Source of the DNA: Escherichia coli
GTDB taxonomy: Bacteria; Pseudomonadota; Gammaproteobacteria; Enterobacterales; Enterobacteriaceae
Strand: one strand, 5' to 3'
NCBI RefSeq assembly: GCF_003790525.1
Contig: NZ_CP033635.1
Length of the DNA: 64,000 bases
Both the position numbers and the translations under genes were made by a program. Below the pieces are notes generated by a model. It ran no database searches. It saw only the letters and a list, made by a program, of their open reading frames with translations, and was not told where the DNA came from. This document shows, piece after piece, positions 28,734 through 29,732 of the stretch (position 1 is the stretch's first letter; every line of letters begins with the position of its first letter).

Positions 28734-29732
28734 TTATTGTTCAGCTTTTTCAACAACAAAACCATTTTGCCGTACAAACTCAATCAAGAGTTCAATATTA
28801 ACAATGCCCCATTGATTAGAAATAGCAACAATTTCACCAGAGGGAAGTGTAATCAACGCATCTTCATTAATATGATAGCAACTTTTTTGCTTCTCTGGTA
28901 TCTGATCGATAAGCATAACCGTACGTTTTTTAAAGTCATCACTTAATCCATTTATTAAATCATTATAACTTGCAGGATTAAATTGTCTTATCCAATCACG
29001 TAATAATTCAAGCGCTAATTTACGTTTATTAAGTTCTTTATCTTTATATATATACCACGTATAGTCCTTCTCTTTTTTCTGACTGCTAATTAGCTGTTCA
29101 TCACGTTTTTCACGAAATTTAACTTGATATTCTTCCAATTCAGGAACCGGTATGATTTGCTCTGCATTGATTAGAACATCATCATTAAATCTATAAGGCG
29201 TCAGACGAACACATCGAATGTCTACCCCCTTATCTCTTAACCAAATCGCAGTGGTAGTCAGTTCCTTGCTAAAATCCGATGATGCCAAAACAATTCTGAT
29301 ATCTTTTCCGAAATCAACAAGCTCAGTTTCATCCAATTCAACAAATTCAAGTATTTTTTCTTTCGCATCGGCATCGCAGTTTTGTTTTTTCAAATACGTC
29401 TGGAAATATTCACATGCTTTCGCAAAACTCATTGTGGAAATCATCGCCGCATATCGTAGTGCCTGTAACTCCATATGCGCCCCCGTTTCATCACGTTTTA
29501 ATTCGATAACCACTAAATTTGCCTGTTTATCGATTGCCAATAAATCAATTCGCCGACGGCTATCTTCCCAGTCAGAAAACTCTTCGGAAATCACCAGACA
29601 ATCAGGAGCAATAATATCTATATTTTTTTTGATTGCTTCCTGTAAATCATAACGTTCCTGTAATCCTTCCAGAGTAAAGGTCGTTTTTTCTAAAGCATGT
29701 AGTTCTTTATTTACGATATTGTACAGCGCCAC
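28734..29732 (-). CDS. Hypothetical protein with PD-(D/E)xK-like nuclease motif
   Basis: 332 aa ORF, AT-rich, with N-terminal motif RIDLLAIDKQANLVVIELK (D...ExK arrangement). No neighbouring partner gene. Confidence 0.4.
   Translation of the reverse strand: MALYNIVNKELHALEKTTFTLEGLQERYDLQEAIKKNIDIIAPDCLVISEEFSDWEDSRRRIDLLAIDKQANLVVIELKRDETGAHMELQALRYAAMISTMSFAKACEYFQTYLKKQNCDADAKEKILEFVELDETELVDFGKDIRIVLASSDFSKELTTTAIWLRDKGVDIRCVRLTPYRFNDDVLINAEQIIPVPELEEYQVKFREKRDEQLISSQKKEKDYTWYIYKDKELNKRKLALELLRDWIRQFNPASYNDLINGLSDDFKKRTVMLIDQIPEKQKSCYHINEDALITLPSGEIVAISNQWGIVNIELLIEFVRQNGFVVEKAEQ

Follow-up and report, generated by a model that had tools for sequence, protein, structure and literature searches.

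The gene at positions 28,734 to 29,732 of a 64,000-nucleotide stretch of the Escherichia coli contig NZ_CP033635.1 (the window) encodes a 332-residue protein that, by its predicted fold and catalytic residues, is a PD-(D/E)xK nuclease, as a first-pass annotation of this DNA had rightly proposed. Its N-terminal module (amino acids (AAs) 1–215) is related to the nuclease NucS and belongs to a large, already catalogued family; what is new is only the uncharacterised C-terminal domain that follows it. With moderate confidence we propose that the protein is a stand-alone, modification-dependent (type IV-like) restriction nuclease that acts as a single protein.

The protein belongs to PADLOC family PDC-S11. 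Model PDLC04909 matches residues 1–322 to profile positions 1–337 of 347 (E = 8.8e-113), and the gene stands by itself, with different neighbours in each of six contexts. It shares with PDLC04909 proteins the N-terminal module, the C-terminal type, the single-gene organization and a location in defence islands, and no structural difference between them is apparent. PDC-S11 is a computational candidate without an assigned mechanism, and the name spans at least three unrelated C-terminal types. As judged from these comparisons the gene is an intact, already catalogued defence candidate; the earlier label "orphan" was mistaken, since an exhaustive search of 50%-identity cluster representatives found 3458 at E ≤ 1e-3 (678 of them at E ≤ 1e-30) in addition to the full-length PDC-S11 match. 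Nor is it a fragment of a larger disrupted gene, as full-length homologues are present in many genera. A search of indexed proteins gave 7877 matches among 8000 candidates scored, and the best 120 of these, which come from Escherichia, Citrobacter, Pantoea, Hafnia, Morganella, Serratia, Vibrio, Photobacterium, Shewanella and Aeromonas, are mostly 326–345 AAs long with 98–100% query coverage and 55–99% identity, a few being truncated copies.

In E. coli the gene is carried by 553 of 5426 complete genomes (about 10%), always on the chromosome, and it is essentially absent from phage records. The stretch with this gene is 100% identical in strain SMS-3-5 and about 15 other complete genomes. The window allele differs from that of strain C11 by 22 synonymous and 8 non-synonymous substitutions, a non-synonymous to synonymous rate ratio (dN/dS) of 0.086, which indicates that the gene is under purifying selection. 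Of the two roles first suggested for it, a stand-alone defence nuclease agrees with these findings; this ratio and the full-length conservation weigh against a decayed restriction component.

The nuclease module

The proposed catalytic motif, IDLLAIDKQANLVVIELK, comprises residues 62–79 and contains D63, E77 and K79, all conserved among homologues. Three alignments, of 28, 80 (A2) and 63 (A3) sequences, were compared; D63, E77, Q90, R93 and Y94 are invariant in all of them, K79 is invariant in the first two and present in at least 90% of the third, and E50/E51 are invariant or nearly so. A profile-to-PDB alignment places D63, E77, K79, Q90 and Y94 on D160, E174, K176, Q187 and Y191 of NucS, which we take to be the active-site residues of that enzyme. 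An AlphaFold2 model built on the 80-sequence alignment, with a mean predicted local distance difference test score (pLDDT) of 88.6, has the restriction-endonuclease-like α/β core fold that, together with a conserved D...(D/E)-x-K, characterizes the PD-(D/E)xK superfamily. Across hundreds of 50%-identity clusters the module keeps about 50% identity.

The closest named family is NucS, found with NCBIfam NF003270 (E = 4e-7, residues 16–100 to profile positions 121–200) and weakly with Pfam NucS_C (E = 0.0027). Scans of the protein against Pfam, NCBIfam and PHROGs gave only sub-threshold NucS and Cas4 matches, and a sequence search of the PDB found NucS alone, weakly. Orthology with NucS/EndoMS was considered and rejected, the score being 29.3 bits against a curated cut-off of 216. 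NucS/EndoMS (PDB 2vld, 5gke) has an N-terminal DNA-binding domain that is missing here, whereas the E. coli protein has an extra C-terminal domain, occurs patchily in islands and is not linked to mismatch repair.

The C-terminal domain and the proposed relationship to MdgA

The first-pass annotation had called the C-terminal half uncharacterised, and AAs 223–332 indeed have no Pfam match. The domain carries the motifs DY(S/T)xY, K236, R(Y/F)(H/F) and SNQW308G; D223, Y227, K236, L239 and R285 are conserved positions and W308 of the SNQWG motif is invariant. Modelled alone (pLDDT 93.6), it consists of a β-hairpin and two helices followed by three β-α or β elements. In A2, most of whose 80 sequences have this C-terminal type, no sequence matches Pfam in its C-terminal region. 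No convincing relative was found among solved structures, the fold not being that of SRA, EVE, iEndoIII or any solved reader, and the protein has none of the modified-base reader domains recognised in type IV enzymes (SRA, EVE/PUA, YTH, SBD, iEndoIII, DUF4268). The possibility that the domain is a divergent DUF4268 was rejected by hhalign comparison of alignment A4 with the DUF4268 alignment A5 (probability 0.2%).

A profile search of a 5.8-billion-protein index with this domain alone returned almost only fragments of the same gene, which reflects a limit of the word index. Foldseek comparison with AFDB50 gave 132 matches at E ≤ 1e-3, and these include proteins named DUF91/PD-(D/E)xK, "Type I restriction enzyme HsdR N-terminal domain", DUF4297 and "restriction endonuclease", as well as a 765-AA AAA ATPase and stand-alone proteins of 130–190 AAs. 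One metagenomic protein, from its sequence, appears to join the domain to an N-terminal winged helix (wHTH). Such recurrence with several nuclease families is the behaviour of a targeting module and does not reveal the ligand. Between the E. coli gene and its Citrobacter orthologue the C-terminal domain has a dN of 0.37 and the N-terminal module one of 0.082, a 4.5-fold difference of the kind expected of a specificity domain. We tentatively suggest that the domain could represent a class of nucleic-acid or modification reader not described before, which bacteria have joined in independent events to at least four nuclease families (DUF91/NucS-like, HsdR_N, DUF4297 and Mrr-type "restriction endonuclease"), to an AAA ATPase and to a wHTH, and that its specificity could be for a phage DNA modification outside those of the known type IV enzymes.

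Most relatives of the protein match only residues 1–215, at about 50% identity, though they are 330–390 AAs long. A Pfam scan of 63 such relatives found DUF4268 in 17 of them and DUF5655, DUF7662 and RAMA in one each. The separate PADLOC hidden Markov models for PDC-S11 correspond to separate C-terminal types, and PDC-S57 and PDC-S14 have PDC-S11 C-terminal domains on other N-termini. By these comparisons the PDC-S11 family is modular, with a constant N-terminal module and an exchanged C-terminus. An "EVE-like" label for one of the sister C-terminal types was dropped, since the Pfam match had E = 0.06 in one member and was absent from the Vibrio cholerae paralogue. A literature search for DUF91 together with defence found nothing relevant.

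MdgA, a single-gene system described in 2025, is a modification-dependent anti-phage nuclease (PMC12366544; bioRxiv 10.1101/2025.02.28.640651). It is necessary and sufficient for defence against phage T4, not against the cytosine-containing T4-GT7, and has activity against Mu as well. With the purified protein, degradation is far better for T4 DNA than for T4-GT7 DNA; the E77A change abolishes both activity and defence (PMC12366544). The primer for E77A encodes V-I-V-E-N-K-L-D-D, an E-x-K motif numbered exactly like E77-L-K79 of the E. coli protein. The relationship was tested by proxy, by scanning species-representative genomes for the peptide VIVENKLDD. Seven of the eight genome matches are proteins of 370–380 AAs with glutamate at residue 77 from the first methionine. 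The three peptide-bearing proteins that were scanned are all PDC-S11 (PDLC04913, E = 1e-124 to 1e-165), and the one scanned against Pfam contains DUF4268 (3.9e-39). The seven proteins align with residues 1–218 of the E. coli protein at 33–39% identity (E = 1e-43 to 7e-48); the exact primer 27-mer is not present in the eight loci examined. From the primer peptide we infer that MdgA is in the same nuclease-module family and that the DUF4268 type of PDC-S11 corresponds to it. The two proteins would then have in common a single-gene organization, a NucS-like PD-(D/E)xK N-terminal module and a catalytic glutamate 77 within E-x-K, and would differ in the C-terminal domain, which is DUF4268 in MdgA and an unrelated domain with no Pfam family here. 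Because the C-terminal domains are unrelated, the MdgA targets, glucosyl-hydroxymethylcytosine DNA of T4 and Mu, should not be assumed for the E. coli protein.

Proposed activity and alternatives

In the proposed mechanism residues 1–215 form a NucS-like nuclease with a QxxxY motif, in which E50/E51, D63, E77 and K79 are the predicted metal-binding and catalytic residues. Residues 223–332 would select the substrate, most plausibly DNA with a non-host modification, and this choice would license cleavage of incoming phage DNA and spare the Dam/Dcm-methylated host chromosome. Modification-dependent cleavage and phage defence are carried over to this protein by analogy with MdgA, and binding of DNA or of a modification by the C-terminal domain is presumed. 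A NucS-like nuclease fused to an inactive EndoIII domain (END-Mag) is likewise a modification-dependent defence nuclease (PMC12191111). The protein resembles the two-domain type IV enzymes (the SRA-PD-(D/E)xK enzymes MspJI and AspBHI, and the END nucleases including END-Mag; PMC12191111) in having a nuclease and a separate reader-type domain in one polypeptide, no methyltransferase, a defence-island location and modular exchange of readers. It differs from MspJI in its reversed domain order and in the fold of its C-terminal domain, and modification dependence is in its case a proposal only. As in the type IV class there is no cognate methyltransferase: none, nor any conserved neighbour, was found in E. 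coli, Citrobacter, Vibrio, Shewanella or a metagenome bacterium, and no methyltransferase is adjacent in the window or in four other loci (L006, L017, L020, L024). Genes of this type repeatedly adjoin type IV enzymes or their remnants, namely SBD-HNH, ScoMcrA_N, GmrSD_C and a tandem PDC-S11 paralogue.

The chief competing explanation is a nuclease triggered by infection, as in abortive-infection or Shedu systems. Here the C-terminal domain would release a non-specific nuclease on sensing not a base modification but a phage protein, a small molecule, or a DNA end or structure. We regard this as unlikely, since the two NucS-like fusions that have been tested both act directly on modified DNA and the sister C-terminal types RAMA and DUF4268 are restriction-associated domains. 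PADLOC finds no SduA/DUF4263 profile match in the protein, and Shedu SduA has the opposite domain order, with the variable domain N-terminal and the nuclease C-terminal.

A second alternative accepts a functional defence gene and holds that the window carries a weakened or inactive copy of it. Residue 285 is cysteine in the window allele; the same column has arginine in 73 of 80 family members and lysine in 3, and arginine is found in the other E. coli alleles examined (C11, 2017.15.01CC and a cluster of 939 sequences). At most 45 of the 553 carriers are at least 99% identical to the window copy, so the Cys285 allele, which SMS-3-5 and EC332 also have, is a minority one. R285C at a near-invariant position may weaken the protein or alter its specificity. 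An inactive or weakened copy is nevertheless regarded as unlikely. Against it, the open reading frame (ORF) is intact, several human, chicken, pangolin and river-water isolates that are unrelated to each other share the allele, and a single substitution may merely shift specificity.

It is very improbable that the protein acts as one unit with the neighbouring SBD-HNH endonuclease or with Wadjet. In the inspected E. coli genomes the gene does lie just downstream of, and convergent with, the SBD-HNH gene, and in the window it is co-directional with jetD. However, of about 2181 E. coli genomes with a match to the SBD-HNH gene end, only about 500 continue into the PDC-S11 gene, homology breaking just past the SBD-HNH stop codon; in strain 2017.15.01CC the right neighbour is retron St85, in a P4-like satellite, with no Wadjet; another copy lies beside BREX-1; and the Vibrio, Shewanella and metagenome-bacterium homologues have neither neighbour. 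PADLOC finds no Jet profile match in the protein, and there is no constant linkage to jetABCD. The gene is independent of Wadjet and of the HNH genes. Least credible of all is that the gene serves housekeeping DNA repair in the manner of NucS/EndoMS, or is a decayed relic: NucS is the closest named family, but the score falls far below that family's cut-off, the NucS N-terminal domain is missing and the low-GC gene is always in variable islands of about a tenth of E. coli genomes, while the dN/dS value and full-length conservation speak against decay.

The gene and its genomic setting

The size of the ORF, its AT-richness and its position between the HNH gene pair and jetD, all noted in the first reading, agree with the coordinates and composition found here (Table 1), and the strand is minus. 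Its GC content is 35.3%, compared with 48.0% for the window and 48.5–49.5% for the flanking HNH, SBD-HNH and jetD genes. The GTG start codon is supported by homologues of other genera, which begin at the same residue (M-A/S-L-Y...), and as read from the sequence a Shine-Dalgarno-like AGGAAG (29739–29744, minus strand) lies 6 nt upstream of it. The gene probably has its own promoter within the upstream stretch that travels with it; a consensus promoter scan and a terminator scan at the gene found nothing above chance.

The product is RefSeq WP_001240364.1, and records name it variously "PDDEXK family nuclease", "hypothetical protein" or "membrane protein". The last of these names, used in RefSeq and UniProt, was rejected (maximum 19-residue hydropathy 1.24, pI 4.9). 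The Salmonella Typhimurium version (UniProt A0A6C7IJ66), annotated as "inner membrane protein", has 245 AAs and lacks the first ~86 residues, including the catalytic D63, E77 and K79; the misleading names in E. coli records probably derive from it.

Table 1. Positions in the window of the PDC-S11 gene, its parts and its neighbours
Feature	Position	Strand	Remarks
PDC-S11 gene	28734..29732	minus	complete ORF, 332 AAs plus stop, GTG start
N-terminal nuclease module, AAs 1–215	29088..29732	minus	NucS-like PD-(D/E)xK core plus helical and β extension
Catalytic D63 ... E77-L-K79	29496..29546	minus	aligned with D160/E174/K176 of P. abyssi NucS
Q90-A-L-R-Y94	29451..29465	minus	QxxxY motif as in NucS, RecB and Cas4 nucleases
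Long linker helix, AAs 199–222	29067..29138	minus	lowest-confidence part of model, pLDDT 58–68
C-terminal domain, AAs 223–332	28737..29066	minus	putative target-recognition domain, no Pfam family
Codon 285, TGC (Cys)	28878..28880	minus	Arg column in family
Upstream stretch	29733..29837	minus	~105 bp, kept with the gene when right neighbour is a retron, not Wadjet
HNH gene, 213 AAs	26972–27613	minus	ScoMcrA-like head; N-terminus weakly matches type IV mREase profiles
SBD-HNH phosphorothioate-dependent endonuclease gene	27693–28622	plus	NF045808, 3e-131
jetD	29859–30914	minus	co-directional with PDC-S11 gene, 126 bp upstream of it
IS256-family element	31300–32614		transposase ORF 31334–32542, minus; NF033543, 5.9e-129; 30-nt imperfect terminal inverted repeats
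Druantia-III-like DruH gene and Zorya II	19101–26145		DruH 1119 AAs, STY4851/ECs_5259 family; DEAD/DEAH helicase genes upstream
nanM (N-acetylneuraminate epimerase) remnant	26355–26964		frameshifted, Kelch-repeat; island border with nan/fim region

The gene is in a dense defence island beside the nanM remnant and a tRNA-Leu(CAA) gene (52979–53063), which we take from the E. coli map to be leuX. The complex of P4-like satellite and island, which takes up much of the window, is likely to have integrated at this tRNA gene. In other strains an intact nanM-nanC-fimB is present at the corresponding place. The divergent HNH pair and the PDC-S11 gene form a cluster of three nucleases with no methyltransferase. 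To the right of the gene are a type III Wadjet (JetD3, E = 4.6e-244), then BrxR and then the P4-like satellite. The insertion sequence of the IS256 family splits jetC into two parts (32601–36686 and 30927–31244), whereas SMS-3-5 and EC332 have an intact jetC of 4437 nt; the Wadjet of this strain is therefore probably inactive. On the other side, DruH adjoins a complete type II Zorya (zorA2, zorB2, zorE), and this block, like the PDC-S11 gene, is low in GC (37–40%). Positions 42000–45000 of the window have a GC fraction of 0.55–0.63, compared with 0.35–0.52 in the rest.

Other loci give further contexts. In E. coli AVS0655 (NZ_CP124498.1, L021 9001–9861) a 90.5%-identity allele lies beside brxA of BREX-1; it is frameshifted and has lost its last ~40 codons to an IS1 insertion, and the same truncated form is present in at least two other genomes. 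In V. cholerae (GCA_048209175.1, L002 8001–10131) the orthologue is within the cargo of a Tn7-like CRISPR-associated transposon (TniQ-Csy2-Csy3-Csy4) and has directly after it a second PDC-S11 paralogue, whose C-terminus is different (PDLC04916, 2e-142); this tandem pair adjoins a complete, separate type I restriction-modification system and a PADLOC PDC-M04A/B pair. Of the more distant homologues, one is in a leucine-catabolism operon and one in a mobile island beside a GmrSD_C fragment.

In roughly a tenth of complete E. coli genomes the leuX/fim-nan defence island includes this gene, and surveys of defence systems already count it, as "PDC-S11", with no assigned role. Through the link of its nuclease module to the validated MdgA, it can be put forward as a type IV restriction enzyme inactivated by E77A, a hypothesis that is concrete and cheap to test. 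If the C-terminal domain does read a DNA modification, it would be a new reader fold for epigenetic enzymology and of use in predicting host range for phage therapy, and it would account for the many alternative C-termini that accompany one nuclease chassis, at times in tandem paralogues.
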